Of a stretch of DNA of 64,000 bases, positions 1,774 to 44,681 are shown in pieces. Within the stretch, counting starts at the first letter, position 1. Every line of letters starts with the position of its first letter. The DNA comes from an uncultured Gammaproteobacteria bacterium. GTDB lineage: Bacteria; Patescibacteriota; Microgenomatia; Levybacterales; UBA12049. The stretch lies in NCBI GenBank assembly GCA_964521295.1, contig CAZFRF010000001.1, positions 641,016 through 705,015 on the forward strand, given 5' to 3'. A program made the position numbers and the translations under genes. The notes under the pieces are model-generated. The model saw only the letters and a program-made list of their open reading frames with translations, was not told the origin of the DNA and did not search any database.

Positions 1774-3252
1774 ATGAAATTACTTTCGCTCTATGAAAAG
1801 AGTAAAAACGTTTGGTTTTTAATATTTACAAGTATAATTTTTTTTATACTTAGACTCCCATCTTTAATTGAACCATATTGGTATGGAGATGAAGGAATTT
1901 ATCAGGCCCTTGGACTTGGCATCAACAATGGAAGGATCTTATATCAAGGGATTTTTGATAACAAACCACCTTTTTTATATTTACTTTATGCTCTATTTAA
2001 TTCAGATCAATTTTTATTGAGGAGCGTATCTTTAGTATCTGGATTATTGTCAATTTTTATATTCTTCTTTTTAACTAAAGCTATATTTAAATCTCAAAAA
2101 CCTGCATATCTAGCAACATTTTTATTTTCTATTCTCTTCGGACTTCCACTAATTGAAGGAAATATTGCAAACGCAGAAAACTTCATGATATTTTTTAATC
2201 TTGCTGCTGGATTTTTGGCCATAAAATCATTAGAGACAAATATTAACCAGAGATATAAGCTTTTGTTTTTATCTGGAATATTATTGAGCATTTCTTTTCT
2301 TTTTAAAATTGTCGGAATTTTTGATTTTGCTGCATTTTTTGCATTTATATTTTTCGCCAATTTTTCTAAAAACATAAAAGATATTTTAAATCCTAAAAAT
2401 TTAATAACTGAATTTAAAAATTTATCTCCAATGATTCTTGGATTTAGTATTCTTCCCATACTAGTTATTGGATATTTTATTTTCAACAATGCTTTCCCAT
2501 ATTTCTTAAAAGCCACATTAACTAACAACGTTGGCTATGTTGGCTACGGAAATAAATTTATCATTCCCCAAGGTTTTTTAATATTAAAATTATCAATTTT
2601 ATTTTTAGCTCTCCTAGCTCTCTTTATTAAGAGACAAAAATTATTACTCGGAGAAATGTTTATTTATATTTGGCTAGCCTTCTCTCTTTTTAATGCTTTC
2701 TTTTCACAACGACCTTATACTCATTATGTATTAGTTGCTCTTCCTGCAATTTGTTTATTAACGGGATTGCTATTGATAAAAAGAAACTTTAAGTTAAACG
2801 CATTACTGTTTATTATCACAGTGTTATTAATTTATAAAAATTTTAGTTATTACCACAAAACTACTGTTTACTATCAAAATTTCATAGCATTTATCACCAA
2901 TCATAAATCACTTTATGATTATCAACGCTTTTTTGATGGAAACACTCCAAATGACTATCTATTAGCAAGTTTTCTTAATATGCATTTAAAAAAAGAGGAT
3001 AATATTTTTGTCTGGGGAAATAATGCTCAAGTTTATAAATTAACAAACAAACTTCCCCCTGGAAGATATACTGTTGCCTATCACATTACTAGTTATCCAG
3101 ATGGAATTTCAAATACCCAGCAGGGCTTAGAAAAATCACAACCTAGGTTTATTGTAATAATGCGAAATGTCACAACTTATCCATTCTCCTTGTCAAATTA
3201 TCAAAGTATTGTAAACTTAAACGGAATTGTAATTTATGAAAAAAATAATTGA
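1774..3252 (+). CDS. GT-C-type polytopic membrane glycosyltransferase (PMT/ArnT-like, GT39/83-like)
   Basis: About 12 predicted TM helices. N-terminal loop motif YWYGDEG...NKPPFLYLL resembles the DE-containing first loop of PMT/ArnT family enzymes. Confidence 0.5.
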   Translation: MKLLSLYEKSKNVWFLIFTSIIFFILRLPSLIEPYWYGDEGIYQALGLGINNGRILYQGIFDNKPPFLYLLYALFNSDQFLLRSVSLVSGLLSIFIFFFLTKAIFKSQKPAYLATFLFSILFGLPLIEGNIANAENFMIFFNLAAGFLAIKSLETNINQRYKLLFLSGILLSISFLFKIVGIFDFAAFFAFIFFANFSKNIKDILNPKNLITEFKNLSPMILGFSILPILVIGYFIFNNAFPYFLKATLTNNVGYVGYGNKFIIPQGFLILKLSILFLALLALFIKRQKLLLGEMFIYIWLAFSLFNAFFSQRPYTHYVLVALPAICLLTGLLLIKRNFKLNALLFIITVLLIYKNFSYYHKTTVYYQNFIAFITNHKSLYDYQRFFDGNTPNDYLLASFLNMHLKKEDNIFVWGNNAQVYKLTNKLPPGRYTVAYHITSYPDGISNTQQGLEKSQPRFIVIMRNVTTYPFSLSNYQSIVNLNGIVIYEKNN

Positions 3253-3592: not shown

Positions 3593-4673
3593 AATGTTCA
3601 ATTTAAATTTTTTTCCAATACTTCCTCTATTAATCTCATTAATAATAACAGCATTAACTGTACCAATCTCACTATATTTTTTAAAAAAATTTAAAGTATT
3701 AGATGATCCACAGAAACACAAACATCCTGCAATAATTCATAAAAACCCTATACCAAGAGGTGGGGGTATTCCGCTTTTTTTAGGCGTATTTATTACCAGC
3801 TTATTTTTTGTCCAATTCAATCAAGTAATCATCGCCTCATTTGCAGCTGCTTTTATTGCGCTCGCATTAGGAGTGATAGATGATAAATTTGATATCTCGC
3901 CATACCTGCGTTTTTTTGTAAACATCGCATGTGCAGTAATTGTCGTATATTTTGGAGCAAATGTTGCCTTCATCACCAATCCTTTCGGAGGTATTTTATT
4001 TCTTAATAAAATACAAATTCCTTTTATTAACCTACCAACAATAACTTTACTATCAGATTTAATTGCCATTTTGTGGATAGTATGGGTCATGAACATGCTG
4101 AACTGGAGCAAAGGCGTAGATGGTCAAATGCCAGGAATAGTCGCGATATCTGCCTTTATAATTGGTCTTTTATCATTAAGATTTTCAGTTTTAGATCAAT
4201 CAAGCATAAACGCTGCAACACTATCTTTTATAATTACCGGTGCTGCTTTAGGTTTTTTACTATTTAATAAATACCCTGCAAAAATATTCCCAGGATATGG
4301 AGCAACGGCAATCTACTTACTACTTGCAGTTGTTTCAATAATTTCAGGAGCAAAATTAGCAACGGCAATTTTAGTAATGGGAGTACCAATGACAGACGGA
4401 TTATTCACTATTATAAGAAGGGTTGCTAGTGGGAAATCTCCATTCTGGCATGATAAGCAACATCTACATCATTTACTACTGGGTCTTGGATTAGGACAAA
4501 AAAGAGTAGCTATATTTTACTGGGTTATCTCTGCAATCTTAGGAGTAATTGCCCTAAACCTATCAAGCAAAGGAAAACTTTTTGCTATAATAATGTTAGT
4601 AATATTAGTTTTCGGAGCAATACTTTTCTTACGCTTTTTAATTAAAAAAATTAATAATGAAACTGATTTATAA
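3564..4673 (+). CDS. Polyprenyl-phosphate N-acetylhexosamine-1-phosphate transferase (MraY/WecA family, GT4 superfamily)
   Basis: Polytopic membrane protein with WecA/MraY-like motifs (DDKFDISPYLRF; NMLNWSKGVDGQ; GDxGA-like region). Overlaps the flanking ORFs. Confidence 0.7.
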   Translation: MFIQFYLLFKMFNLNFFPILPLLISLIITALTVPISLYFLKKFKVLDDPQKHKHPAIIHKNPIPRGGGIPLFLGVFITSLFFVQFNQVIIASFAAAFIALALGVIDDKFDISPYLRFFVNIACAVIVVYFGANVAFITNPFGGILFLNKIQIPFINLPTITLLSDLIAILWIVWVMNMLNWSKGVDGQMPGIVAISAFIIGLLSLRFSVLDQSSINAATLSFIITGAALGFLLFNKYPAKIFPGYGATAIYLLLAVVSIISGAKLATAILVMGVPMTDGLFTIIRRVASGKSPFWHDKQHLHHLLLGLGLGQKRVAIFYWVISAILGVIALNLSSKGKLFAIIMLVILVFGAILFLRFLIKKINNETDL

Positions 4674-5610
4674 CGTTTTAAGACTGGTAAGACCTAGGCA
4701 GTGGATTAAAAATTTTGCTCTCTTTGCATCAATAACCTTCTCGGGAGAATTATTTAATTACCCTTTACTTCAAACAGTTGCCCTAGGTTTTATTGTTTTT
4801 TGTGGACTTTCCAGCGCAACTTACATAATCAATGATATATTTGATGTAAAAAAAGACAGATTACACCCTTTTAAAAAGTTTAGGCCCTTAGCTAGCGGAG
4901 ACATCCCAATTTCCTTTGGCATCAGTTTTGCAATCCTTTTAGTCATATCTTCTCTTTATTTAGCTAAAAGTATTAACCCAACTTTTTTTACAATTGGTAT
5001 CGTCTACTTAGTTATTCAAATTTTATACTCGTCCTTTATCAAATCCTTAGCTGTTGTTGACATACTCGCTTTAGCATCGGGATATATCTTAAGAGTATAC
5101 GCGGGAGAGTTTGCTAGCGGTTTCCACATTTCTGTTTGGCTCCTGCTTACAACTATTTCAATTTCTCTTTTTCTAGCAATCGGTAAAAGAAGATCTGAAC
5201 TCACTCTTTTATCAGCAAGTAAAGACATAGATATTGCCGCAACCAGAAAAAGCTTGTCGCATTATTCAGATAGGCTCTTAGATGTATATGCTTCTATTTT
5301 TGCTACCTCAACCTTTATCGCTTATTCTTTATTTACCTTCTTAGAAAACCCGGGAGGATTTAGATTAAATTTAAGTATCTTAGTGCCCGATACCTTGTCT
5401 TCATTTTTTGAAAGAAAATGGTTAATGATAACAATCATTCCTGTCGTCTACGGATTAATGCGCTATCTTCAAGATATTTATGAAAAAAACGAAGGAGAAA
5501 GTCCTGAAAAAGTATTACTTTCTGACAAACCATTACTTGCAACAGTGATTATTTGGGCAATATTAGTAGTCGTCTTAATTTATTTCGTTAGCCCTAGTTC
5601 TGCTTTTTAG
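4657..5610 (+). CDS. UbiA-family prenyltransferase, decaprenyl-phosphate 5-phosphoribosyltransferase-like (DPPR synthase-like)
   Basis: First Asp-rich motif NDIFDVKKDRLHPFKKFRPLASGDI closely matches the NDxxDxxxDRxHPxKxxRPxAxG signature of UbiA-family DPPR synthases. About 8 TM helices. Confidence 0.65.
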   Translation: MKLIYNVLRLVRPRQWIKNFALFASITFSGELFNYPLLQTVALGFIVFCGLSSATYIINDIFDVKKDRLHPFKKFRPLASGDIPISFGISFAILLVISSLYLAKSINPTFFTIGIVYLVIQILYSSFIKSLAVVDILALASGYILRVYAGEFASGFHISVWLLLTTISISLFLAIGKRRSELTLLSASKDIDIAATRKSLSHYSDRLLDVYASIFATSTFIAYSLFTFLENPGGFRLNLSILVPDTLSSFFERKWLMITIIPVVYGLMRYLQDIYEKNEGESPEKVLLSDKPLLATVIIWAILVVVLIYFVSPSSAF

Positions 5611-8567: not shown

Positions 8568-9776
8568 ATGTCATTTTTATCCGGAAAAAAGCTTCTTCTG
8601 GTCGGCTTTATTATTGTGCTTTTAGTAGCAATCCCTGTTACCGTTTATTTGGTAGAACAACAACAAAGAACTAAATCTTCAGCTGAAGCTGCTACCAAAC
8701 TATCCTTAATTCAAACTCCACAAACTGTAAAGGTAGGCGAAAAAATAACCTTTGACGTTATAGCTGACCCATCAAATATAAACCAAATAGGCTTTATTAA
8801 ATTAGTCTTACTTTATGATCCGACTAAGCTTGCTACTGTTCCTGGCTCATTTGCCGTATCTCAATGGCCATCTGCAGATGGATCAACATTTACGCCAAGT
8901 ATTCCAATCGGCCCAGAATATACTGAAGGAACTATAACTGTTTCAATGTCTGTTGGTGGAAGTCCACAAAATGTTTTACAACGTAGCTCAAAAATAGCAA
9001 CCATAACCTTCGAAGCATTGGATAAAACTGATACGGGAGTACCAACTCAGGTTACCTTCGGTAATGCAACCCAAGTACTATCACTAGGAGGAACTACTAA
9101 TACAGATGAGGGGGCAATTAATATGTTATCAAATTCTTCGCCGGGGCAAGTAAATATTACAGATGAAACCGAGCCAATAACCAGCACGGTAACAACAACT
9201 ATTACAACAACAGTTACTGGAACTACAGCAACTGAAACATCAACCCCAACAGAAACTCCTACTCCAACTGAAGAGGATGGAACTACAGCAACTGAAACAT
9301 CAACCCCAACAGAAACTCCTACTCCAACATCTGCAGTTGGACTTACTTGCTCTTCTTTAACACTTGATCCAGGTGCAAATGGAACTGCGCCTTTTGCAGT
9401 TAATTTAACTGCTGTTGGAAGCAGCGCAGACTCTACTATTAGTAAAGTTTCCTTTAATTTTGGAGACGGACAAACGCAAGATGTTACCGATTCAGGAGGA
9501 GTTGGTACTAATTCGATTAGTGTATTAACATCTCATACATATGCTACAGCTGGTAATTATAATGCGAGCGCAACATTAACCGATGTTGATGGAAACTCAA
9601 CTGTTGGATCTTGTAAAACTGTTGTTGCGGTTACAGCTCAGGAGGGAGCAAGCCCAACGGTTACGATTGCTAGTCCATCTCCTCTTCCCGCAACAGGACC
9701 AACGGGCTTAATTGCAGTTGGAGCAATAGGCGTAATGCTTACATTCATAGGGGCTCTACTTCTCTTCGCTCTCTAA
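8568..9776 (+). CDS. Secreted surface protein with T/P-rich tandem linker, PKD-like domain and C-terminal LPATG sorting-like signal
   Basis: N-terminal TM/signal segment. Duplicated TTATETSTPTETPTPT linker. PKD-like signature (FNFGDGQ...SHTYATAGNYNASATLTDVDGNS). C-terminal LPATG followed by a hydrophobic tail. Confidence 0.6.
   Translation: MSFLSGKKLLLVGFIIVLLVAIPVTVYLVEQQQRTKSSAEAATKLSLIQTPQTVKVGEKITFDVIADPSNINQIGFIKLVLLYDPTKLATVPGSFAVSQWPSADGSTFTPSIPIGPEYTEGTITVSMSVGGSPQNVLQRSSKIATITFEALDKTDTGVPTQVTFGNATQVLSLGGTTNTDEGAINMLSNSSPGQVNITDETEPITSTVTTTITTTVTGTTATETSTPTETPTPTEEDGTTATETSTPTETPTPTSAVGLTCSSLTLDPGANGTAPFAVNLTAVGSSADSTISKVSFNFGDGQTQDVTDSGGVGTNSISVLTSHTYATAGNYNASATLTDVDGNSTVGSCKTVVAVTAQEGASPTVTIASPSPLPATGPTGLIAVGAIGVMLTFIGALLLFAL
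9219..9329 (+). repeat. Exact tandem duplication (51-nt copies, 60-nt period) inside the surface-protein gene linker
   Basis: ggaactacagcaactgaaacatcaaccccaacagaaactcctactccaac occurs at 9219 and again at 9279. It encodes GTTATETSTPTETPTPT twice. Confidence 0.85.
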
Positions 9777-11499: not shown

Positions 11500-13167
11500 T
11501 TAGGGATTAAATCTGCTTCCGTCAATTGTTTCTTCGGATTTAGTAAGAATCTGTCTCCAGTCCCCAAGTTTTTTAAATAATAAAATAAAAGTTGTTGCCT
11601 CCTTAACATTAAATAACCAAGTTAAGAATAAATACAAACTAAATCCAATAAATCCTGAAATAGAAGTTAAAAATATTAAATTAATTGTTTTCGTTGTATC
11701 GAAAACTAACTGATCCAAAAGCTTAATTGGAACATACAATGCGAAAGCGGTAAAGAATGCTGCCGTAGTAATCTTAATAAAGCTGACCATAAAATCTTTT
11801 TTATTAAATCCTCCAACTTTAAAATTCAAGAAAATTAACATAATTAAGAAATTTAAAACTGAACCTATTGAATATGCTAGAGCAATACTTTCAATTCCTA
11901 AATGATAAAAGAATATAAAAATAACTCCCAAGGCAATCATTACGAAAGTAGTTAAGCTACCAACCAATAAGGGAGTTTTTGTATCATGCAAAGCGTAGAA
12001 TCCCCTAGAGATTAAATAAATTAATGCTTGAGCAAATAAAGAGATGCTAAAAAATGCCAGTGTTCTTCCCGTTAACACCGTTGCTTGCCAATCAAAGGCA
12101 GACGCTCCATACACAAGCCTTACTAGAGGAATTCTTAAAACCAAAAATACTACTGATATAGGTAAAATAAGATAAAAAAGCTGATAAAAACTTGTCATAA
12201 AAGTCAGCTTAAAATCTTCCAGTTTATCTTTTTCCTTTGCCAATACCGGAAAAGCTGCTTGAGCAATTGCCTGGCCTATTAAAGCAACTGGCGCAAACGC
12301 AAGAGTTTGCGCAAGATCAAATATGAAATAATTTCTTCCGGGATTTTGTAAAAACGAAACTAGAGTAACAGTTGCAAGTGTTCCTAATTGAAAAACACCA
12401 ATCGAAATGGTTCTTGGCCAAATTAATTTAAAAAAATCAGTTACCCCCGAGGTTTTAATAAAATCTCTTGACAGATTAGGCCTAAAATTAAAACCCAGTT
12501 TCTTAATTAAGGGCAATTGAATTATTACAAAAATTAACGCTCCAAATATTACCCCGTAGGCCGCTGAGTATATTCCCACGAGCGGAGACAGCACTAGAAT
12601 AGAAATAATAATACCAAGATTATAAGAAGCAGAAGCTATACCTGGTACAAAAAAATGATTATAAGATTGAAGAATTGCTGATAAAAAACTACCAATTATA
12701 AACACTATTTCTCCAAAAATAACTATTCTAGTCAGATTTGTCATGAGCTCTAATTGTTCAACAGAAAAACCAGGGGCGAGTAACTTAGAGATACTACCTG
12801 CAAAAATAAAATAGATTATTGAAAATATCGAAAAGACCACCAAGCTTAGACATAAAAGAGTAGAAGCTATTTTATGTGCATCTCCTTCTCTGTTCTTGAC
12901 TAAATAATCTGAAAAAATTGGAATAAATGCAGATGACAGAGCGCCTGCAATAATAAGCTGAAATAAAAATTCCGGCACTCTAGTGGAGGCAAAGTAGATG
13001 CCCACTGTATTGGAAGGACCAAAAATAGATGCCAAAAGTCTTAATCTGATAACACCAAGCACTTGTGAAAGAATAATTGTCGTCATTATTACAAAAGCAG
13101 CAGAAATAATGTTGCTTTGCCTTTGCAATATAAGACTAAGGCCTTTTTTGAAAAAATCTTTAGGCAT
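11500..13167 (-). CDS. murJ: Lipid II flippase MurJ (MviN family)
   Basis: 555 aa with 14-TM MOP-superfamily topology. MviN-like N-terminus (ISAAFVIMT...LGVIRLRLLASIFG). Confidence 0.8.
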   Translation of the reverse strand: MPKDFFKKGLSLILQRQSNIISAAFVIMTTIILSQVLGVIRLRLLASIFGPSNTVGIYFASTRVPEFLFQLIIAGALSSAFIPIFSDYLVKNREGDAHKIASTLLCLSLVVFSIFSIIYFIFAGSISKLLAPGFSVEQLELMTNLTRIVIFGEIVFIIGSFLSAILQSYNHFFVPGIASASYNLGIIISILVLSPLVGIYSAAYGVIFGALIFVIIQLPLIKKLGFNFRPNLSRDFIKTSGVTDFFKLIWPRTISIGVFQLGTLATVTLVSFLQNPGRNYFIFDLAQTLAFAPVALIGQAIAQAAFPVLAKEKDKLEDFKLTFMTSFYQLFYLILPISVVFLVLRIPLVRLVYGASAFDWQATVLTGRTLAFFSISLFAQALIYLISRGFYALHDTKTPLLVGSLTTFVMIALGVIFIFFYHLGIESIALAYSIGSVLNFLIMLIFLNFKVGGFNKKDFMVSFIKITTAAFFTAFALYVPIKLLDQLVFDTTKTINLIFLTSISGFIGFSLYLFLTWLFNVKEATTFILLFKKLGDWRQILTKSEETIDGSRFNP

Positions 13168-13554: not shown

Positions 13555-14121
13555 ATGTCAAAAAAAAATATCTCCATAAATTTAATCAAAGACCAAAAAA
13601 ATGATATAGTCGAAAGAATTATCAATTGGTCGCTTAGTATCGGTAGGATCCTAGTAATCGCCACAGAACTGGTTGCACTACTTGCGTTTCTTTGGAGATT
13701 CGGACTCGATCAACAATTAATTGATCTACACACACAAATTAAGCAAAAACAGGTAATTGTTGCTGCTTTTAAAAAACAAGAGGATGAATATAGAAACCTA
13801 CAGGACAGACTAAGCATTGCTTCTAATTTTTCTACAATCCAGGAAAAGAACCAACAAGATCTTAAAGCGATATTAAATATCGGCACAAAATATGCAAGTT
13901 TTAACAAAATTTCTAATTCAAGTAATAAAATTTCAATGGAAATTAATATTCCCTCTGTTATTTCATTAAGCAATTTAGTAAATGAAATAAAAAGCTATCC
14001 CTCTACTCAGAACATCAGTATTGATAAGATTGAAACTAAAACAAGCAGTGGAATAATTATCGTAGGAATATCTGTGTATCTAAAACCATTGGCAACAAAA
14101 TATGCAACTGAAAATCAATAA
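13555..14121 (+). CDS. PilN-like bitopic membrane protein (type IV pilus alignment-complex-like)
   Basis: Short cytoplasmic N-terminus with an INLIK motif resembling the PilN INLLP box. One TM helix, then a coiled-coil periplasmic segment. Confidence 0.45.
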   Translation: MSKKNISINLIKDQKNDIVERIINWSLSIGRILVIATELVALLAFLWRFGLDQQLIDLHTQIKQKQVIVAAFKKQEDEYRNLQDRLSIASNFSTIQEKNQQDLKAILNIGTKYASFNKISNSSNKISMEINIPSVISLSNLVNEIKSYPSTQNISIDKIETKTSSGIIIVGISVYLKPLATKYATENQ

Positions 14122-14713
14122 AATTTTTACATCCGTAAATAAAGAAAAATATGGTAAGTACTTAGAGCTTATTCCAGATTTTAAAAAAGAAAAGGCTCAA
14201 AAATTTACAACTATTGTATTAACAATTGTGGCAGTCATTATTTTAGCAATATTCGCAATCAATCCCACGCTATCAACAATTGCAAATCTAAACAAGCAAC
14301 TTGAGGATGCGAGATTCGTATCAAAAAGATTACAAGATAAAATTAACGACTTATCTATATTACAATCAAAATTTAACAGCATACAAGAAGATTTACCCTT
14401 AATTTACGAATCTGTTCCGAAAAAATCTGAAGCACCAAAAATTACTGGACAAATTCAAGCAATTGCCCAAGCAGCTAATGTTACTATAATAAGCACTCAA
14501 ATAAGCAACATTACTCAAGCACAAGCTAAATTTTACTATTTAGATTTTAATATTACATTAACTGGATCATATGAAAATATCATAAATTTCATAGACCAAT
14601 TAAGTAATTCTCAAAGAATTACATATATTTATAACGTTAGCATTACTAAGGGACAAAAAGAGGGTGAAGCATTAAGAGTTAATGTAAAAGGACAGGCCTT
14701 TTTCAAAGAGTAA
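14102..14713 (+). CDS. PilO-like bitopic membrane protein
   Basis: Single TM helix followed by a long coiled-coil and an alpha/beta region. Overlaps the PilN-like ORF. Confidence 0.35.
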   Translation: MQLKINKIFTSVNKEKYGKYLELIPDFKKEKAQKFTTIVLTIVAVIILAIFAINPTLSTIANLNKQLEDARFVSKRLQDKINDLSILQSKFNSIQEDLPLIYESVPKKSEAPKITGQIQAIAQAANVTIISTQISNITQAQAKFYYLDFNITLTGSYENIINFIDQLSNSQRITYIYNVSITKGQKEGEALRVNVKGQAFFKE

Positions 14714-14714
14714 C

Positions 14715-15044
14715 ATGAAAAGAAAAGATATTTTAATCATACTAATTCCAAGCTTAATTGTTGTTATTTTATGGGTAATTTTTAGCGTTTTTCATAACTA
14801 TATTAACTCCACAATTCCTAATGATATTAATATGCAAATCTTATCTATTAATCCCGATTTTGACACAGATACTATAAATAAAATTAAATCTAGGTCAACT
14901 ATTGATCCTATCTATACCTTCGAACAATCTACTGTAGACGAAGCTTCTCTCGATGAAAACCCTTCTCCTACACCAAGTGTAAACCCACCTACGGTAAGCA
15001 CTTCAAGCGCAAAAATAGCTAGCGACGAAGGAGCATTGGAATAA
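14715..15044 (+). CDS. Small membrane-anchored protein with Pro/Ser/Thr-rich tail (PilP-like position)
   Basis: 109 aa, N-terminal TM helix. 1-nt gaps or overlaps with its neighbours. Confidence 0.3.
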   Translation: MKRKDILIILIPSLIVVILWVIFSVFHNYINSTIPNDINMQILSINPDFDTDTINKIKSRSTIDPIYTFEQSTVDEASLDENPSPTPSVNPPTVSTSSAKIASDEGALE

Positions 15045-16459
15045 TGAAACAACATTTTTGGAATAAACGCATTCCAACTTTATTGGGTATTTTTTTAATC
15101 GGCGTAGGCATAATCGTTACAACCATCCTAGTTAAACAAGGTGGTTTTTTATCAATTAACGCTAGCCCAACTACTCAACCAAAAAATGTAAGAATAACAA
15201 ATATTACCCATGATAGTTTTACGGTTTCTTATGAAACTCAAGATTCGGTTTTCGGGGTTATTAGTTATGGAACAAGTATTGAATTAGGCAAATCGGGACT
15301 CGACGATCGAGACCAGGAAACCGGAAACATATCGGCACATAAATTACATAACATTACAGTCAGAAATTTAACCCCTGAAACCAAGTATTATTTTTCAATC
15401 ATTAGCGGAAAGGATACATTTCTAAACACAGACAGTCCTTATGAGGTGACTACCGGAATAGAGATTTCCGAATCACCTACTGAGCAGGAACCAGTTAGCG
15501 GCAGGATTCTTCTTCCCAATGGAAAACCTCCAGCTGAAAGCATTATCTACTTAACCACAGAGGGAACTCAAATAATATCATCTTTAGTTAAAAATGACGG
15601 AACTTTTGTTATCCCTCTTAATTCCTTACGAACAACAGATTTAATCTCCTATAGCACTCTTAGCGAGAATCAAATTCTCAAACTATTAATAACTGGCGAT
15701 AACAGTCAAACATCAAGCGTCATTATTTCATTAGATCAAATCCAGCCTATTCCACCCATCTCCTTAGGTAGTAACTACGACTTCACACAAAGTGAAAAAA
15801 AAACAGCAACCAACTCTGCAGTACTCGAGGTATTTCCATCCTTCTCCAGCACAGAAAAAACAGTTGAAACCAATAACGGACCCAAAATAATAACTCCCGA
15901 AAGAAATGCAGAAATTCCCGATCAAAAACCAAAATTTACTGGTACAGCAAACCCTAACGAAACAATTCAGGTAATTATTCATTCAGATGAGAAAATTCAA
16001 GTAGATGTAAAAACAGATTCAAAAGGCAATTGGAGCTATAGACCAACAAAAGATCTTTCTCCTGGTAACCATACTATTACTGTAGTTGCAAAAGACAAAA
16101 ATGGAATATTAAAAACAATTATCCAATCCTTCGTTGTTTATGCTTCGGGTAGTCAACTAGAAGGAGAGACAGGCTCACCAACCCCTACTGTCAAACCTCA
16201 AGCAACAAAAACGATAACACAAACGCCAACCCATACTCCAACTACAGCACCCAATATAACAACAAACACGCCTACAACTGAGCCAATTGATAGTAATAAC
16301 GTTGTTACCATCACAGAAGCAGCAACTAAATCTCCAACCCCAACTACCCCTTTACCTCCAACCGGGAATCCTACTATAATGAGCTTCGGTATAGTTGGAT
16401 TAGTAGTTACCATGTTAGGTAGTCTTCTATTTCTTCTATCTAGAAAAAATAGCATATGA
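15044..16459 (+). CDS. LPXTG cell-wall-anchored surface protein with FN3-like and Ig-like domains
   Basis: N-terminal TM/signal. FN3-like segment (NVRITNITHDSFTVSYET...KYYFSI). T/P-rich linker. Canonical C-terminal sorting signal LPPTG plus hydrophobic stretch plus SRKNSI positive tail. Confidence 0.7.
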   Translation: MKQHFWNKRIPTLLGIFLIGVGIIVTTILVKQGGFLSINASPTTQPKNVRITNITHDSFTVSYETQDSVFGVISYGTSIELGKSGLDDRDQETGNISAHKLHNITVRNLTPETKYYFSIISGKDTFLNTDSPYEVTTGIEISESPTEQEPVSGRILLPNGKPPAESIIYLTTEGTQIISSLVKNDGTFVIPLNSLRTTDLISYSTLSENQILKLLITGDNSQTSSVIISLDQIQPIPPISLGSNYDFTQSEKKTATNSAVLEVFPSFSSTEKTVETNNGPKIITPERNAEIPDQKPKFTGTANPNETIQVIIHSDEKIQVDVKTDSKGNWSYRPTKDLSPGNHTITVVAKDKNGILKTIIQSFVVYASGSQLEGETGSPTPTVKPQATKTITQTPTHTPTTAPNITTNTPTTEPIDSNNVVTITEAATKSPTPTTPLPPTGNPTIMSFGIVGLVVTMLGSLLFLLSRKNSI

Positions 16460-17739
16460 AGATAGCAATAATTGGAGCCGGTTTTACAGGGCTTTCTGCT
16501 GCCTGGGAGTTAGTTAAAAATAATCATGATGTATATATATATGAAAAGGATACATATCCAGGAGGGCTCGCTATTGGTTATCAGGAAAAAAAATGGAATT
16601 GGTCCCTAGAAAAACACTATCATCATTGGTTTACTAATGATAAAAGCGTTTTGGATCTTGCGGAAGAAATAAAATTTAAAGTTATAGTAAAAAGGCCAAA
16701 AACTACTGTTTTAATTCAAGATAAAATTTACCAACTAGATTCTCCACTTACTGTATTAAGATTTCCTTTAATGTCTTTCCTGTCTAGAATAAGAATGGCT
16801 GCAGTAATCGGCTTTTTAAAATTCAATCCATTATGGAAACCTTTGGAAAAATACAAAGCCGCAAAAGTATTACCACTTCTTATGGGAAAAAAGGCATATG
16901 AGATGATTTGGGAGCCCTTATTCATAAATAAGTTTGGTAAATATACAAGTAATATTTCACTCGCCTGGTTTTGGGCGAGAATTACTAAAAGAACTCCATC
17001 TCTTGCTTATCCAAAAGGGGGATTTTTAAATTTTGCAAACGCTTTGACAAAAACAATAAAAATAAAAAAAGGCAAATTTTTCTTTGATACAGAAATACTT
17101 GATTTAAAAGAAGATAAAAAATTAATCCTGACAATAAAAGACAAAAATGAAAAAATCACGCAAGAGGAATTTGATAAAATTATCGTTACAACTCCTTCAT
17201 TTTTATTCTTAAAAATTGCAAAAAACTTACCTAATGAATATAAAAATAAACTCGGAAAACTACATGGCCTGGGAGCAACAAATCTAGTTCTTAGACTCAA
17301 AAAACCATTCTTTAACGATAGTACCTATTGGGTAAGTGTCTGCGATAAAAATGCACCCGTAATGGCAATTGTCGAACACACTAACTTCATGAATAAAAAG
17401 TTCTACAATAATGAAAGTATTTTATATTTAGGTAATTACCGAGATTCCAATGATATTTATTTCCAAATGAATGAAGATCAAATGCTTAATCATTTCGATA
17501 CTTTTCTAAAAAAAATTAACCCTGAATACAAAAAAAACATAATCAGTAAAAAATTGTTTAAATCCCCATTTGCTCAGCCAATCATTCCAATTAATTATTC
17601 CAAAATATTACCTAAATTTATAACTCCTATTAAAAATGTATACTTAGCCAACATCGAACAAGTTTATCCATGGGATAGAGGTACAAATTATGCGGTTGAA
17701 TTAGGTCAGAAAGTTGTAAAAATTGCCCTAGATGAATAA
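16456..17739 (+). CDS. FAD-dependent oxidoreductase, UDP-galactopyranose mutase (Glf)-like / amine-oxidase superfamily
   Basis: N-terminal Rossmann dinucleotide motif IAIIGAGFTGLSAA...YEKDTYPGG. HxFHTND-like HWFTNDK. KQWG-like NKFGK block followed by the PKGG motif. Confidence 0.6.
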   Translation: MKIAIIGAGFTGLSAAWELVKNNHDVYIYEKDTYPGGLAIGYQEKKWNWSLEKHYHHWFTNDKSVLDLAEEIKFKVIVKRPKTTVLIQDKIYQLDSPLTVLRFPLMSFLSRIRMAAVIGFLKFNPLWKPLEKYKAAKVLPLLMGKKAYEMIWEPLFINKFGKYTSNISLAWFWARITKRTPSLAYPKGGFLNFANALTKTIKIKKGKFFFDTEILDLKEDKKLILTIKDKNEKITQEEFDKIIVTTPSFLFLKIAKNLPNEYKNKLGKLHGLGATNLVLRLKKPFFNDSTYWVSVCDKNAPVMAIVEHTNFMNKKFYNNESILYLGNYRDSNDIYFQMNEDQMLNHFDTFLKKINPEYKKNIISKKLFKSPFAQPIIPINYSKILPKFITPIKNVYLANIEQVYPWDRGTNYAVELGQKVVKIALDE

Positions 17740-19351
17740 ATTATTTCAATTTATAAAATCTAATAAAATAGAAACACTTATTGCTTTATTAGCCGTCTGT
17801 TTTTCAACTTGGTTAATGTTTTCATCATTTAACGTAAGCGAAGGAAATATGCAAATATCTGCAAAATCATGGAGCGATTTTGCTAGCCACATACCCTTAA
17901 TTAGATCCTTTTCTCTAGGCTCCAATCTACCACCTGAATATCCATTATTTGCAGGACCAGCTATTAAATATCATTATCTATTCTATTTAGTCGTAGGCGT
18001 GTTAGAAAGAATAGGGGTTAGGATTGATTTTGCCTTAAATATTCCCTCAATTATAGGTTTTGCTTCGTTAATATTTATGATTTATCTTTTTGCAAAAGAA
18101 ATTTTTAAATCTAAAATGGTTGGCATTATAAGTATTTTTTTGTTTTTATTTAATAGCTCATTAAGTTTTATTAATTTTTTTCGAGAACATTCTTTCTCAA
18201 TTCAGGAGATAATTTTAAATAAAGACTTTACGAATTTTGGTCCGTATGACGGAGGAGTAATATCAGCTTTTTGGAATTTAAATATTTACACAAACCAAAG
18301 ACACCTAGCCTTAGCCTATGCACTTTCCCTACTAATCATCTACACATTCTTAAAACTACATACTACAAATCATAAAAATGCATATGAAAAAACACTAATT
18401 ATTGGAATTGTACTTGGGTTATCTTTCATATTAAACATGGCTGTATTTTTAATGACAATTTCTGTTCTTATAACATTAATGCTATTTCTAAAACATCAAA
18501 GAAAATATATTTTTATATCTTTAATGTTATCTGGAGTAATTGCGCTGCCCTTTTACTTATATCAAATCTCCACGCCATCTATGGCGCCCATCACTTTTTG
18601 GCCTGGATATTTAGTAACTGATCTATCGATTATTAATTTCATTAATTATTGGGTACAAAATATCGGCCTCAATATAGTTTTAATACCAATTGGATTTATT
18701 ATCGCAAAAAAAATTCAGAAAAAAATATTAATTGCGTTTTTCAGCATTTTTATAATCGGAAATATCTTGAAATTTTCACCTGAAATTGCAGCCAATCATA
18801 AATTTTTCAATTTCTTTATTATCGTTTCAGCTATGTTCTCTGCAAATTTACTTGTTAGTTTATGGAAAAAACATGACACACTAAAGCCAATAACTATATT
18901 ATTATTTTTAGGATTAATTCTTTCAGGAATTATTGATTTTTTCCCAATATATAATGATCGAAAAATTACACTTGAAGATTATACAAACAATCCAAGTATT
19001 AGATGGATAAAAAATAGCACTCCTAGCGACTCTATTTTTTTAAACTCGCAATATTTATATAACTACGCGAATATCGCAGGTAGAAGAATATTTTTGGGAT
19101 GGCCATACTTCTCTTGGTCACAGGGGTACAATACAGAAGCAAGAGATAATCTAAGAAAAAAAATGTTAAACACTAATGATCTATCATTTTTTTGCAGCAA
19201 CGCAACAAATTATAAATTAAATTATATCGATATTAATACACGAAACGAAGATGCAATGGTAAATTTAAATTTTTTTGAGAAAAACTTTAAAAAGGTATAT
19301 GAAAATATGAAGGATGGATTTATAATCTACAGTATTAATTCAAAATGCTAA
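17732..19351 (+). CDS. Polytopic membrane protein, GT-C-like glycosyltransferase candidate
   Basis: 539 aa with at least 12 TM helices and large loops. Overlaps the Glf-like gene and the downstream YYY-domain gene. Confidence 0.4.
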   Translation: MNKLFQFIKSNKIETLIALLAVCFSTWLMFSSFNVSEGNMQISAKSWSDFASHIPLIRSFSLGSNLPPEYPLFAGPAIKYHYLFYLVVGVLERIGVRIDFALNIPSIIGFASLIFMIYLFAKEIFKSKMVGIISIFLFLFNSSLSFINFFREHSFSIQEIILNKDFTNFGPYDGGVISAFWNLNIYTNQRHLALAYALSLLIIYTFLKLHTTNHKNAYEKTLIIGIVLGLSFILNMAVFLMTISVLITLMLFLKHQRKYIFISLMLSGVIALPFYLYQISTPSMAPITFWPGYLVTDLSIINFINYWVQNIGLNIVLIPIGFIIAKKIQKKILIAFFSIFIIGNILKFSPEIAANHKFFNFFIIVSAMFSANLLVSLWKKHDTLKPITILLFLGLILSGIIDFFPIYNDRKITLEDYTNNPSIRWIKNSTPSDSIFLNSQYLYNYANIAGRRIFLGWPYFSWSQGYNTEARDNLRKKMLNTNDLSFFCSNATNYKLNYIDINTRNEDAMVNLNFFEKNFKKVYENMKDGFIIYSINSKC

Positions 19352-21465
19352 ATATAAGTTCTGCTGATTTTAATCATATTATTAGCTGGTGGATACATTT
19401 ACTTTTATTAGGAATTATATTTATTCCTATTACTTCTTTAATATTTAATAAATTCAAAGACAAAGGTTATATATTTACTAAAATAATCTCTTTAATTTTT
19501 ATTTCCTATACTATCTTTACAGCGGGCACTTTAAAGATCTTAAATTTTTCATTTCCGAATTTGATATTTATATTAGTAATTTTTGGATTCATAAACTTAC
19601 TAGTTTTTAAACGAAATAACTCAATTAAAAATCTACTCAGAGATCTTAAATTCTTTATAATCGAAGAGATCATCTTTCTATTAACACTTATTTTTTGGTG
19701 TTTTATTAGAGGAAATCAACCAGACATTCATGGGTTAGAAAAATTTATGGACTTTGGAATGGTTAATTCTATACTTAGAACTGACTTTTTTCCTGTTAAT
19801 GATATTTGGTACTCAGGCTTAACAATCAATTATTATTATTTTGGTCACCTAATGACTGCTGTAATAATAAAATTATCAAATGTTCCTTCTTACATCGGCT
19901 ACAATCTAATGATCTGCACTCTGTTTGCATTAACATTTACGTCAGTAATCTCTTTAGCTATTAATTTATTCAATAATCTAAAGATCTCCAGCAAATCCTT
20001 AATAGCTGGCATACTTTCTGCATCACTGGTAGCTTTAAGCGGAAACCTTACGTCAATTTATACTTTTTTTAAAGCCTATGTTAACGAACATCCGGTTCCA
20101 TTTTGGAAGTTAGAATTTCTACCTTTTACTTTTCCAAATAATTTCTGGTATCCTAATGCAACAAGATTTATTCCCTATACTATCCATGAATTTCCTCTTT
20201 ATTCTTTTGTAGTTTCTGATCTTCACGGACATGTACTAGATATACCAGTTGTCTTATTTACAATTGCTTTTGTTTTTAGCTTGTTTTTAAAACAACAGAT
20301 TAAGAAAATTGACCTTTTGTTTATTGGTTTTCTTGCTGCTGTTATGTATATGACAAACGCTTGGGATGGACTCATATACACCCTCCTCGGACTAATTATT
20401 CTTTTATATCTAATGTTTGTTAAAGATCACAAGATAGTTATTAAAAAAGAAAATCTTATTAATTTTTCAATAAATCTAACATCTCTTTTTATGGGTTTTG
20501 TTTTATTCTCTTTACCTTTTAGCGCAAATTTTAAACCTTTTGTTTCAGGTATTGGAGTCATGTGCGCCCCAAGCGCATTAACCAATCTCGGAAAACTAGG
20601 TCCATTTTTATTTGAAGCAAACCATTGCCAAAAATCCCCAATTTGGCAACTAGTAATTTTATACGGATTTTTTTATTTTTTTGTGATTACGTTTTTGATC
20701 TTTCTGAAATCTCGACAAAAAAATACCCACACTTTTTCCGATAAATTTATTCTCTTTTTAATTTTATTGTCTACATTATTAATAATAATCCCAGAATTTA
20801 TATACATAAAAGATATTTATCCCATGCATTACAGAGCAAATACTATGTTTAAATTAACTTACGAAGCATTTATTATGCTTTCTATTGCATGTGGATATAT
20901 AATTTTAAGAATATTTTCCGGATTAAAAAATAAATTATTAGTATTTATATTTTTCATATTTTCTTTAATACTTATCTATCTTGTATTAAGCTATCCAATA
21001 TTCGCCATAAACTCATATTATAATAATTTAAAAAATAATCCTAACTTAGATGGTTTGAGATATATGCAGAAAAATCATCCAAACGATTATGATTTAATAA
21101 ATTGGATAAATAAAAATATAGACAAACAAACAATAATACTAGAATCAGCAGGTGACTCATACACAGATTACGCAAGAATATCGGCTAATACCGGTATACC
21201 AACAATAATTGGCTGGTCAGTCCACGAATGGCTATGGAGAGGAACATACGATGTTGTAGGACCAAGGGTTAATGATGTTCAAACAATTTATACTTCAAAT
21301 AATCTTGAGCAAGTTAAGAATCTTCTTGCGAAATACAAGGTAAAATACATAGTTGTATCAAGCCTAGAAAGAGAAAAATATAAAACTTTAAATGAAAATA
21401 ATTTTAAAAAAATTGCTAAATTAGTCTATGATAAAAAAGGTGCGAGATTATATAAGCTTAATTAG
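19345..21465 (+). CDS. YYY-domain membrane protein (DUF2298 / chlor_Arch_YYY family), GT-C-like
   Basis: 706 aa polytopic protein with the characteristic motif INYYYFGHLM, followed by a soluble C-terminal domain. Confidence 0.55.
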   Translation: MLNISSADFNHIISWWIHLLLLGIIFIPITSLIFNKFKDKGYIFTKIISLIFISYTIFTAGTLKILNFSFPNLIFILVIFGFINLLVFKRNNSIKNLLRDLKFFIIEEIIFLLTLIFWCFIRGNQPDIHGLEKFMDFGMVNSILRTDFFPVNDIWYSGLTINYYYFGHLMTAVIIKLSNVPSYIGYNLMICTLFALTFTSVISLAINLFNNLKISSKSLIAGILSASLVALSGNLTSIYTFFKAYVNEHPVPFWKLEFLPFTFPNNFWYPNATRFIPYTIHEFPLYSFVVSDLHGHVLDIPVVLFTIAFVFSLFLKQQIKKIDLLFIGFLAAVMYMTNAWDGLIYTLLGLIILLYLMFVKDHKIVIKKENLINFSINLTSLFMGFVLFSLPFSANFKPFVSGIGVMCAPSALTNLGKLGPFLFEANHCQKSPIWQLVILYGFFYFFVITFLIFLKSRQKNTHTFSDKFILFLILLSTLLIIIPEFIYIKDIYPMHYRANTMFKLTYEAFIMLSIACGYIILRIFSGLKNKLLVFIFFIFSLILIYLVLSYPIFAINSYYNNLKNNPNLDGLRYMQKNHPNDYDLINWINKNIDKQTIILESAGDSYTDYARISANTGIPTIIGWSVHEWLWRGTYDVVGPRVNDVQTIYTSNNLEQVKNLLAKYKVKYIVVSSLEREKYKTLNENNFKKIAKLVYDKKGARLYKLN

Positions 21466-43758: not shown

Positions 43759-44340
43759 TCACTCTTTTAATACTGAATACACCACAAGTCTCTTTAGATA
43801 ATTTTTATCATCATTATCCCACGATCCATTACAAGTAATAAGGTTGAGCTTTTTGCCTGATGTATCTGCAAAGACCTCATTTAACGGAAGTTTATCATAG
43901 TCATATATTTCCTTACTCTGAACTACAAAAATAAAGTTATTTCCTTTACTATCAATTACTTCAATTTCATCGCCTGGTTTTAAAAAAGTAAGTTTAAAAA
44001 AAACCGCAGGTGAACCATTTGGAGCATCTAAATGCCCAGCGATTACTGCACTTCCTATAGAGCCTGGTTTGGGACCCAAATTATACCAAGCAACATTCTC
44101 CACTTTTTTTGGCACATCCATCCTGCCTTTATTGTCTATACCAACACTTTCAATGTTAGCTTTAACATTAATACTATTAATTAAAATATTTGTGGGAATT
44201 CCGGAATCATTATTTATTTCCTGATCTAAAGTAATATTTTTTACCTGCTTATCTATATTCGGACTAAGTTTACCACCTAGACCATAACCCACAAAAGATA
44301 AACTGATTAATAGAAAAATGGCAAGAACTATTTTTCTCAA
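43759..44340 (-). CDS. Sortase (cysteine transpeptidase), TTG start
   Basis: N-terminal membrane anchor. Catalytic triad contexts AVIAGH (His), LNLITCNG (TLxTC Cys) and KRLVVYS (Arg). GGAGGT SD lies 6 nt upstream, embedded in the preceding ORF. Confidence 0.8.
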   Translation of the reverse strand: MRKIVLAIFLLISLSFVGYGLGGKLSPNIDKQVKNITLDQEINNDSGIPTNILINSINVKANIESVGIDNKGRMDVPKKVENVAWYNLGPKPGSIGSAVIAGHLDAPNGSPAVFFKLTFLKPGDEIEVIDSKGNNFIFVVQSKEIYDYDKLPLNEVFADTSGKKLNLITCNGSWDNDDKNYLKRLVVYSVLKE

Positions 44341-44487
44341 CTAGTTACCTCCAAATCCTGTTGCCGGTGCCCCGCTAGGAACCGTAGTAGTTGGTGTAGG
44401 AGTCATAGTGGAAGTCTGTGCCACAGCTGATCCCCCAATCATAAACGAGAAAGCTAACGTAAGTAATGCCAAAACTAAATATTTCAT
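44341..44487 (-). CDS. 48-aa secreted Thr/Pro-rich peptide (MKYLVLALLTLAFSFMIGGSAVAQTSTMTPTPTTTVPSGAPATGFGGN), candidate minimal sortase substrate
   Basis: Not in the ORF track because it is under 60 aa. Perfect SD AGGAGGTG lies 5 nt upstream of the ATG. Signal-peptide-like N-terminus with an AVA-Q cleavage motif. C-terminal PATG. Its last codons form the SD of the sortase gene. Confidence 0.5.
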   Translation of the reverse strand: MKYLVLALLTLAFSFMIGGSAVAQTSTMTPTPTTTVPSGAPATGFGGN

Positions 44488-44681
44488 ATTTTCACCTCCT
44501 TTTTTTATATAACATAGATTCTAATAGATAAAATAAAGTAAGGAGTATTATTAACGTAAGAAACTATTAAGAAGTCGTATTAATAATTGATTTCATTGCA
44601 CTTTAAAGATTTCTTTGCCATAGCAAAAATAGACTACACCCCTTTGTAGCAGGATGCTTATCTTAATTAGCTATTTTGAGG

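Follow-up and report, generated by a model that had tools for sequence, protein, structure and literature searches.

The stretch of DNA analysed here, referred to as the window, is a 64-kb segment (32% G+C) of contig CAZFRF010000001.1 (assembly GCA_964521295.1, positions 641,016 to 705,015). It contains a sortase gene (43759..44340) that is directly preceded, on the same, minus, strand, by a small open reading frame (ORF; 44341..44487) coding for 48 residues followed by a TAG stop. The product of this small ORF, MKYLVLALLTLAFSFMIGGSAVAQTSTMTPTPTTTVPSGAPATGFGGN, belongs to an undescribed family of peptides of the candidate phyla radiation (CPR), which carry a sortase-type APxTG site and have no membrane anchor.

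The small ORF and its sortase gene

All features of the two genes lie on the minus strand. The Shine-Dalgarno sequence of the small ORF, AGGAGGTG (44493..44500), is separated from the ATG at 44487 by the 5-nt spacer AAAAT, and the same AAAAAAGGAGGTGAAAAT Shine-Dalgarno sequence is present in the closest relative, referred to as L003. Residues 1 to 23 (MKYLVLALLTLAFSFMIGGSAVA; 44419..44487) are predicted from sequence features to be a Sec signal peptide with the cleavage site A-V-A|Q. The predicted mature peptide up to the scissile threonine, from Q24 to T43 (QTSTMTPTPTTTVPSGAPAT; 44359..44418), is a Thr/Pro-rich spacer, and its Gln24 is conserved in the family alignments. The sortase-type pentapeptide A-P-A-T-G is formed by residues 40 to 44 (44356..44370), in which P41, T43 and G44 never vary and A40 rarely does. 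The motif glycine is followed by FGGN (44344..44355), being the rest of the predicted leaving group, which has neither a hydrophobic segment nor a charged tail. Within these last residues, codons 46 and 47 (gga ggt) provide the GGAGGT (44347..44352) that serves as the ribosome-binding site (RBS) of the sortase gene, 6 nt before its TTG; they are followed by AAC TAG and then by the TTG at 44340, and the peptide stop thus adjoins the sortase start. In L003, an AGGAGGA is found at the position matching this RBS. In all six frames of the window, no other ORF ends in xPxTG followed by at most 10 residues. This anatomy agrees with the initial annotation, made from the letters of the window, in which the co-oriented ORF directly upstream of the sortase, the Shine-Dalgarno sequence 5 nt from its ATG, the signal-peptide-like N-terminus with an AVA-Q site, the Thr/Pro-rich stretch, the absence of a hydrophobic anchor and a positive tail, and the use of the last peptide codons as the RBS of a TTG-initiated sortase had all been described.

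The small ORF is also maintained in relatives. In L003 (a Logan contig), the sortase is 78% identical to that of the window, the gene order DUF1428, peptide, sortase, DUF2177 and DUF1295 is kept, and a 48-residue ORF likewise adjoins the sortase gene. The two peptide ORFs differ in 15 codons, 12 of them synonymously and 3 non-synonymously, with 13 of the 15 nucleotide differences at third positions, and in three further close pairs the ratios of synonymous to non-synonymous differences are 13:5, 9:5 and 14:4. A more distant homologue, P0121, has 54 residues (ending in ...AVPSGAPATGFGPN) and is encoded 82 nt upstream of a 198-residue sortase. As judged from these substitution patterns, the small ORF is a genuine gene under purifying selection.

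With respect to transcription, a terminator-like hairpin followed by a T-run is found after the upstream DUF1428 gene (44636..44657, minus strand); the consensus scan returns one such element when 0.8 are expected, and it therefore suggests only weakly that the peptide and sortase genes start a new transcription unit. The ~60 nt upstream of the peptide RBS (44501..44560, minus strand) are well conserved with respect to L003 (650..715), reading TTCTTACGTTAATAATAC...TTTATTTTAT...AAAAAAGGAGGTG, and are probably the promoter of the module; a sigma-70 consensus scan gives no call in this segment.

The downstream gene codes for a protein of 193 residues, with an N-terminal membrane helix (residues 2 to 21), a disordered linker and a β-barrel, as predicted in the AlphaFold2 model (predicted local distance difference test, pLDDT, 88.7). 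Residues 54 to 191 match the Pfam Sortase family (PF04203, MEROPS C60) with 70.6 bits, as compared with a cut-off of 26.6. The catalytic residues His103 (44032..44034), Cys170 in the sequence LITC, a motif of the TLxTC type (43831..43833), and Arg184 (43789..43791) are invariant among 38 homologues. By its domain, triad and modelled fold this protein is a sortase, for which transpeptidase activity is predicted. A Foldseek search with the model matches solved sortases of classes A, C, D and E about equally well (E-values of ~5e-9, TM-scores of 0.5 to 0.75, 15 to 22% identity), and phmmer finds no match among the PDB sequences. The best class model is that of the NCBIfam class F sortases (NF033748), with 134 bits, which is below its curated cut-off of 166; the class E and class GN models score 22 and 29 bits, respectively. 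Neither the profile search nor the fold search against solved sortases assigns the enzyme to a class.

The TTG start, together with its GGAGGT, looks correct, because the homologues P0002 and P0003 open with the same MRK/MKK followed by a hydrophobic helix, and such a helix is predicted at residues 2 to 21. The public gene call P0001 (177 residues; L090, 533..1066) starts at an internal GTG, 16 codons after the TTG, by which the N-terminal membrane helix, present in all homologues, is lost.

The peptide family and its pairing with sortases

When the 48-residue peptide is used as a lone query, the homologue search returns one match, and the family surfaced only through the genomic neighbourhoods and a profile. 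For the neighbourhoods, sortase loci were sampled with one genome per species by a sortase-profile scan, and the best 80 loci (39 to 56% identity) were kept; the first loci and the window bring the count to 86 sortase loci. The best 80 come mostly from Microgenomates (Levy-, Davies-, Roizman-, Gottesman- and Curtissbacteria), with some Saccharimonadales, one Parcubacterium and 12 loci of Chloroflexota, among them Thermogemmatispora and Caldilineae. Peptides were collected in two sets. The first comprises 156 distinct sequences, obtained from 46 members read from the loci and 120 from a profile search, and the second comprises 105 new sequences from a larger profile search, giving 261 distinct sequences for both sets together. 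The profile search covered 1.84 billion representatives (clusters at 50% identity) and finds 345 clusters with E-values up to 1e-3, 70 of them with E-values up to 1e-10; the top 150 matches are all 48 to 90 residues long and are aligned end to end.

The C-terminal part of these peptides is strongly constrained. The consensus of the 156 sequences is T-V-P-S-G-A-P-[A/S/N]-T-G-[F/R/M]-[G/A]. An xPxTG within 12 residues of the C-terminus is present in all members of both sets (156/156 and 105/105), with P, T and G invariant and with Ala before the motif Pro in 152/156 and 97/105 members, respectively; another Pro is found four positions before the motif Pro in 150/156. The tail, counted from the motif Gly onward, has 2 to 7 residues (4 or 5 in 128/156), apart from one longer member per set (10 and 9 residues), and its P3' residue is Gly or Ala in 148/156. 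A hydrophobic stretch after the motif is found in none of the 261 members.

The N-terminal part is equally uniform. Essentially all members have a signal peptide, judged from sequence features as for the window, with a positively charged n-region, a hydrophobic core of 15 to 20 residues and an A-x-A site. The site A/G-x-A/G|Q is found in ~257 of the 261 members (103/105 in the second set). The first mature residue, Gln, is therefore near-invariant in the family, and it is invariant in both alignments (46/46 and 49/49). By a heuristic signal-peptide finder, whose cut sites are unreliable, Gln is the first mature residue in 2 of 98 background proteins. A lipoprotein or type IV pilin signal was considered and rejected, there being no Cys and no G|F-x-x-x-E motif.

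Between these two conserved ends, the predicted mature peptide measures 14 to 48 residues as far as the Thr (median 30), and the spacer is composed of 32% T, 21% P, 14% S and 11% A, with no Cys and with Lys in only 14 of 154 members. In two members, both from the metagenome-assembled genome (MAG) JBBRMU01 (L031 and L073), the spacer is rich in Asn, Gly, Met and Gln, and MPNGAPxTG is kept. In the 716 kb of sequence of the loci, the peptide-type ending occurs in 84 small ORFs and in no ORF of more than 130 residues. The idea that the peptide is a fragment of a larger LPXTG protein is rejected on this ground, together with the size of the 261 relatives, all of which have 42 to 110 residues.

The pairing with the sortase gene is also a property of the family. 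An ORF of the same design, with 42 to 110 residues, lies directly upstream of the sortase gene, on the same strand, in 62 of the 86 loci. It is present in 62/74 loci outside the Chloroflexota and in 0/12 loci of the Chloroflexota. The conservation of the small ORF in relatives, whose absence the initial annotation had named as a refutation, is thus found both in these loci and in the 261 members. In look-ups anchored on the peptides P0121, P0157, P0192 and P0205, the sortase is the next gene downstream in 4/4 cases and the remaining neighbours are all different. The conserved unit is therefore a two-gene module. The loci without an upstream peptide have no copy of it elsewhere within ~4 kb. 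Several of them have instead a nearby anchored LPxTG protein, with LPDTG in Thermogemmatispora and with LPSTG and LPNTG in L080 and L081. In the Thermogemmatispora loci (L039, L045, L047 and L057), this nearby larger protein ends in LPDTG, a hydrophobic segment and RSRR, and is a canonical anchored substrate.

The distance between the two genes is variable. Gaps of 0 to 162 nt occur (median 56 nt), and only 5 of 59 are of 10 nt or less. The initial annotation had proposed that the two genes are obligately co-expressed through the overlapping RBS. This holds for the window, where stop and start abut, but it does not extend to the family, given these gaps; on this comparison of loci, tight translational coupling is a feature of the lineage of the window and not of the family.

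Some loci depart from the simple arrangement. In L082 (Roizmanbacteria), there are two tandem sortase genes (3830..4573 and from ~4900, the match beginning at 5046), with the peptide gene between them (~4690..4871). L029 has two tandem sortase matches and no peptide. Two separate modules occur in some genomes, namely L030 and L060 in MAG CAZILC01 and L031 and L073 in MAG JBBRMU01. In L089, the module is flanked by genes of two peptidoglycan enzymes, a YkuD L,D-transpeptidase (2412..2861) and a class A penicillin-binding protein (5690 onward), an arrangement that is not conserved in other loci. The CPR-type module is also found in many TPA_asm MAG records that are titled 'uncultured Gammaproteobacteria bacterium' or Pseudomonadales (among others L004, L006, L007, L010 and L011); these records group with Levy- and Daviesbacteria, and their taxonomic titles therefore look wrong. 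One module locus, L059, is titled Methylomirabilota.

None of the Pfam and NCBIfam models, including Gram_pos_anchor and the LPXTG models, matches any of 46 members above noise. The 48-residue peptide alone gives only sub-threshold matches to New_glue and PhrK, driven by the signal peptide and by composition (PhrK scoring 16.5 bits, as compared with a cut-off of 35), and AimP is matched by 1 of the 46 members (E-value 0.008). All source names of the members are 'hypothetical protein'. Sortases are near ubiquitous in Microgenomates (PMC6744442). No description of such peptides is found in open-access papers and bioRxiv, where CPR sortases are mentioned in passing remarks that genomes encode one, and where APxTG appears solely as the target of engineered Staphylococcus aureus SrtA variants, made for residues 29 to 33 (APATG) of histone H3 (PMC8248031). 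This is in line with the impression in the initial annotation that the arrangement had not been described. The family would thus consist of undescribed, widespread, anchorless APxTG mini-substrates, restricted to the CPR as far as sampled. Going by its sequence features, the peptide resembles a sorting-signal substrate, yet it is outside the LPXTG-anchor family of the TIGR01167 and PF00746 type, having no hydrophobic segment, no charged tail, a different first motif residue and no match to an anchor model.

The window also codes for canonical substrates, both on the plus strand. These are an LPATG surface protein with a PKD domain (8568..9776) and an LPPTG surface protein with fn3 and Big_13 domains (15044..16459), each anchored by a hydrophobic tail; they are the two large surface proteins whose motifs the C-terminal PATG of the peptide had been said to echo. 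An A-x-A|Q site is absent from both. The LPPTG gene is followed by overlapping co-directional genes (16456..21465, plus strand) for an amine-oxidase-like flavoprotein and two DUF2298 membrane proteins, and together these genes may form a surface-modification operon. A MurJ lipid II flippase is encoded at 11500..13167 (minus strand), so that a lipid II pathway exists here, and 14102..14713 (plus strand) codes for a PilO-like pilus assembly protein. These two genes are consistent with a CPR cell that has peptidoglycan and type IV pili.

Possible fates of the peptide

A sortase-type APxTG site without a membrane anchor, in a peptide whose gene is paired with a sortase gene, points most readily to a minimal dedicated sortase substrate. 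It is reasonably probable that the peptide is such an anchorless substrate, cleaved at its T-G bond and then attached to the wall or to lipid II. A substrate of this kind was one of the proposals of the initial annotation, and the comparative evidence for it is strong: the pairing holds from one CPR lineage to another, no mature position is invariant other than Gln+1 and the motif residues P, T and G, and the tail is short and never hydrophobic.

According to this mechanism, both genes would be transcribed together and, in the lineage of the window, would be translationally coupled as well. The pre-peptide would be exported via Sec and cut by signal peptidase I after A-V-A, which would bare an N-terminal Gln that probably cyclises to pyroglutamate, blocking the N-terminus. 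The sortase would recognise the extended C-terminal motif V-P-S-G-A-P-A-T-G, and Cys170 would attack the Thr-Gly bond, on which the 5-residue tail GFGGN would leave. The Thr/Pro-rich peptide of ~20 residues (14 to 48 in relatives) would then be moved to an amine acceptor, most likely lipid II or a peptidoglycan stem peptide, and the outcome would be a short, protease-resistant and possibly glycosylated 'headless stalk' on the wall. Because the C-terminus bears no membrane anchor, either the signal peptide, while still uncleaved, or local co-synthesis would have to keep the peptide close to the sortase. The T|G cut, the pyroglutamate, the nature of the acceptor and the mode of retention are what we infer. 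In vitro, sortases require just the pentapeptide and one or a few further residues, which is the basis of sortase-mediated ligation (PMC8248031). The spacer is polar, disordered and free to vary, and it resembles the Thr/Pro-rich wall-spanning segment that precedes LPATG and LPPTG in the anchored proteins of the window.

Several points weigh against a dedicated anchorless substrate. Classical sorting signals need a hydrophobic segment and a charged tail for retention, and their removal leads to secretion; the peptide has neither. Its first motif position is Ala and not Leu, whereas Leu is retained in anchored substrates from the same genomes. The wild-type S. aureus SrtA accepted APxTG only after directed evolution (PMC8248031). 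The canonical substrates in the window being LPATG and LPPTG proteins with anchors, a preference of its enzyme for APxTG is unproven, and specialisation of the enzyme cannot be argued, as the 62 peptide-linked and the 24 peptide-less sortases cannot be told apart by any alignment column. The preference for Gly or Ala at P3' (148/156) and the narrow range of tail lengths are not explained by a pure leaving-group role. A single-sequence fold model of a peptide-sortase fusion has a pLDDT of 39.9 and is uninformative on the docking of the motif. The support for the substrate role is comparative and family-wide.

It is also possible, though unlikely, that the peptide is joined to itself, with the α-amine of the N-terminal Gln as the nucleophile. 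This would generate a head-to-tail, mucin-like Thr/Pro-rich polymer, being a minimal sortase-built fibre, or cyclised single peptides. Every monomer would bring a sorting motif together with its own potential nucleophile. A sortase nucleophile would require the N-terminal residue to be fixed, and the Gln+1 (46/46 and 49/49 in the alignments, with A-x-A|Q in ~257/261 members) is explained by this chemistry as well as by pyroglutamate; this A-x-A|Q site is missing from the window's two canonical LPXTG proteins. Lys is almost absent from the peptides, which excludes Lys chemistry of the pilin type. Head-to-tail ligation and cyclisation by sortases are established chemistry in vitro. On the other hand, a protective pyroglutamate accounts for the N-terminal Gln equally well and would block the reaction, we know of no natural sortase that uses an N-terminal Gln, and the background estimate for the +1 residue is crude and not reliable. 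In its fullest form, in which the paired sortase polymerises or cyclises the peptide into a Thr/Pro-rich mucin-like surface fibre, this proposal would imply a new, minimal, CPR-specific sortase-assembled polymer and a natural APxTG-specific sortase, and in that form it is distinctly unlikely.

An improbable alternative is that the peptide tunes the enzyme instead of being its product. As a poor pseudo-substrate, with Ala in place of Leu, it could occupy or tune a housekeeping sortase, or it could cap the acceptor amines of lipid II and thereby modulate cross-linking. The peptide appears to be made together with the enzyme, as judged from the conserved same-strand adjacency and, here, from the abutting stop and start. 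Ala is in the place of Leu in 152/156 members, and Leu is kept in the anchored substrates. In addition, the sortases have no peptide-specific residues, so that the same enzyme probably serves LPxTG proteins too. However, a decoy needs neither a Thr/Pro-rich spacer of 14 to 48 residues nor an invariant Gln+1, the conserved extended motif VPSGAPxTG suggests optimised recognition and not poor binding, and there is no indication of inhibition.

It is highly improbable that the peptide is a secreted signalling or effector peptide, for which the sortase would be only a maturation protease that frees the body or the short C-terminal tail. The architecture is that of a small secreted pro-peptide, P2' and P3' are partly conserved ([FRM][GA]), and there are the weak, sub-threshold matches to the PhrK and AimP pheromone models. 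These matches are, however, made through the signal peptide, and that to PhrK is far below its cut-off. The body is of low complexity and variable in length and sequence, and the tail of 2 to 7 residues is variable as well, neither of which is like a specific ligand. No receptor gene is linked, the neighbours being different in every locus.

A regulatory leader peptide governing translation or transcription of the sortase, which the initial annotation had offered as its other proposal, or a chance ORF, is practically untenable, although the ORF lies immediately 5' of the sortase gene and has the RBS of that gene in its 3' end, since selection acts on the amino acids (12 synonymous and 3 non-synonymous codon differences with respect to L003), conservation of the signal peptide and of the C-terminal motif extends over 261 sequences, the sortase gene follows at anything from 0 to 162 nt, and neither an Rfam match nor, in the consensus scan, a terminator is found between the two genes.

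Relation to known sortase systems and implications

The reading as a dedicated, anchorless substrate can be compared with the known systems. With canonical LPXTG sorting by housekeeping sortases of classes A, E and F, the module shares the Sec signal, the C-terminal x-P-x-T-G, the membrane-anchored Cys transpeptidase with its His-Cys-Arg triad and the Thr/Pro-rich segment before the motif. It differs in that the chain ends only 1 to 6 residues after the Gly (up to 9 in outliers), without hydrophobic segment or charged tail, and in that Leu is replaced by Ala. The conserved motif is moreover longer (V-P-S-G-A-P-x-T-G), there is no passenger domain, the N-terminal Gln is conserved and the substrate gene lies directly upstream of the sortase gene. 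A dedicated substrate gene that is linked to and co-oriented with the sortase gene is also seen in the pilus clusters of class C sortases. Here, however, there is no pilin fold, no Ig-like (CnaB-type) domain and no anchor domain, the peptide of ~20 residues is made of T, P, S and A and has no Lys (Lys being found in 14/154 members), and in the sortase, whose fold is about equidistant from those of classes A, C, D and E, no class C lid signature is detectable.

The class F sortases (NF033748), known from Actinomycetota and Chloroflexota, provide the best class model, at 134 bits, the homologue P0014 is called a 'class F sortase' by NCBI, and the Chloroflexota relatives, at 45 to 50% identity, adjoin anchored LPDTG proteins; nevertheless, the score is below the curated 166 bits and the peptide partner is absent in 12/12 of the sampled Chloroflexota loci. 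The same pentapeptide is recognised by the engineered S. aureus SrtA variants F40, A1-22 and cW11, APATG being residues 29 to 33 of histone H3 (PMC8248031). These variants were made in the laboratory from a class A enzyme, whereas here APxTG would be the natural motif of a distant sortase clade. A functional analogy, but no more than this, can be drawn with Braun's lipoprotein (Lpp) of Escherichia coli, which is also a very small, secreted polypeptide without a passenger domain, covalently attached to peptidoglycan at its C-terminus. Lpp is lipidated and helical, and it is attached by L,D-transpeptidases via its C-terminal Lys; the two are not homologous and differ in their chemistry.

The pair is open to cheap experiment, with a synthetic peptide of 13 to 20 residues (VPSGAPATGFGGN; TVPSGAPATGFGGN) and soluble enzyme. 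A natural enzyme with a preference for APxTG would find direct use in biotechnology, as the S. aureus sortase has been re-engineered for the native APATG junction of histone H3 at a cost in activity (PMC8248031). The family also marks a gap in annotation, at least 345 clusters at 50% identity being without a Pfam or NCBIfam model. For the CPR, a group whose ultra-small and mostly uncultured cells carry sortases, the peptide may be the most constant sortase client. If it is processed, then the rule that sorting signals have a hydrophobic anchor would not be universal, and passenger-less 'headless stalk' peptides would be a component of the CPR cell wall.

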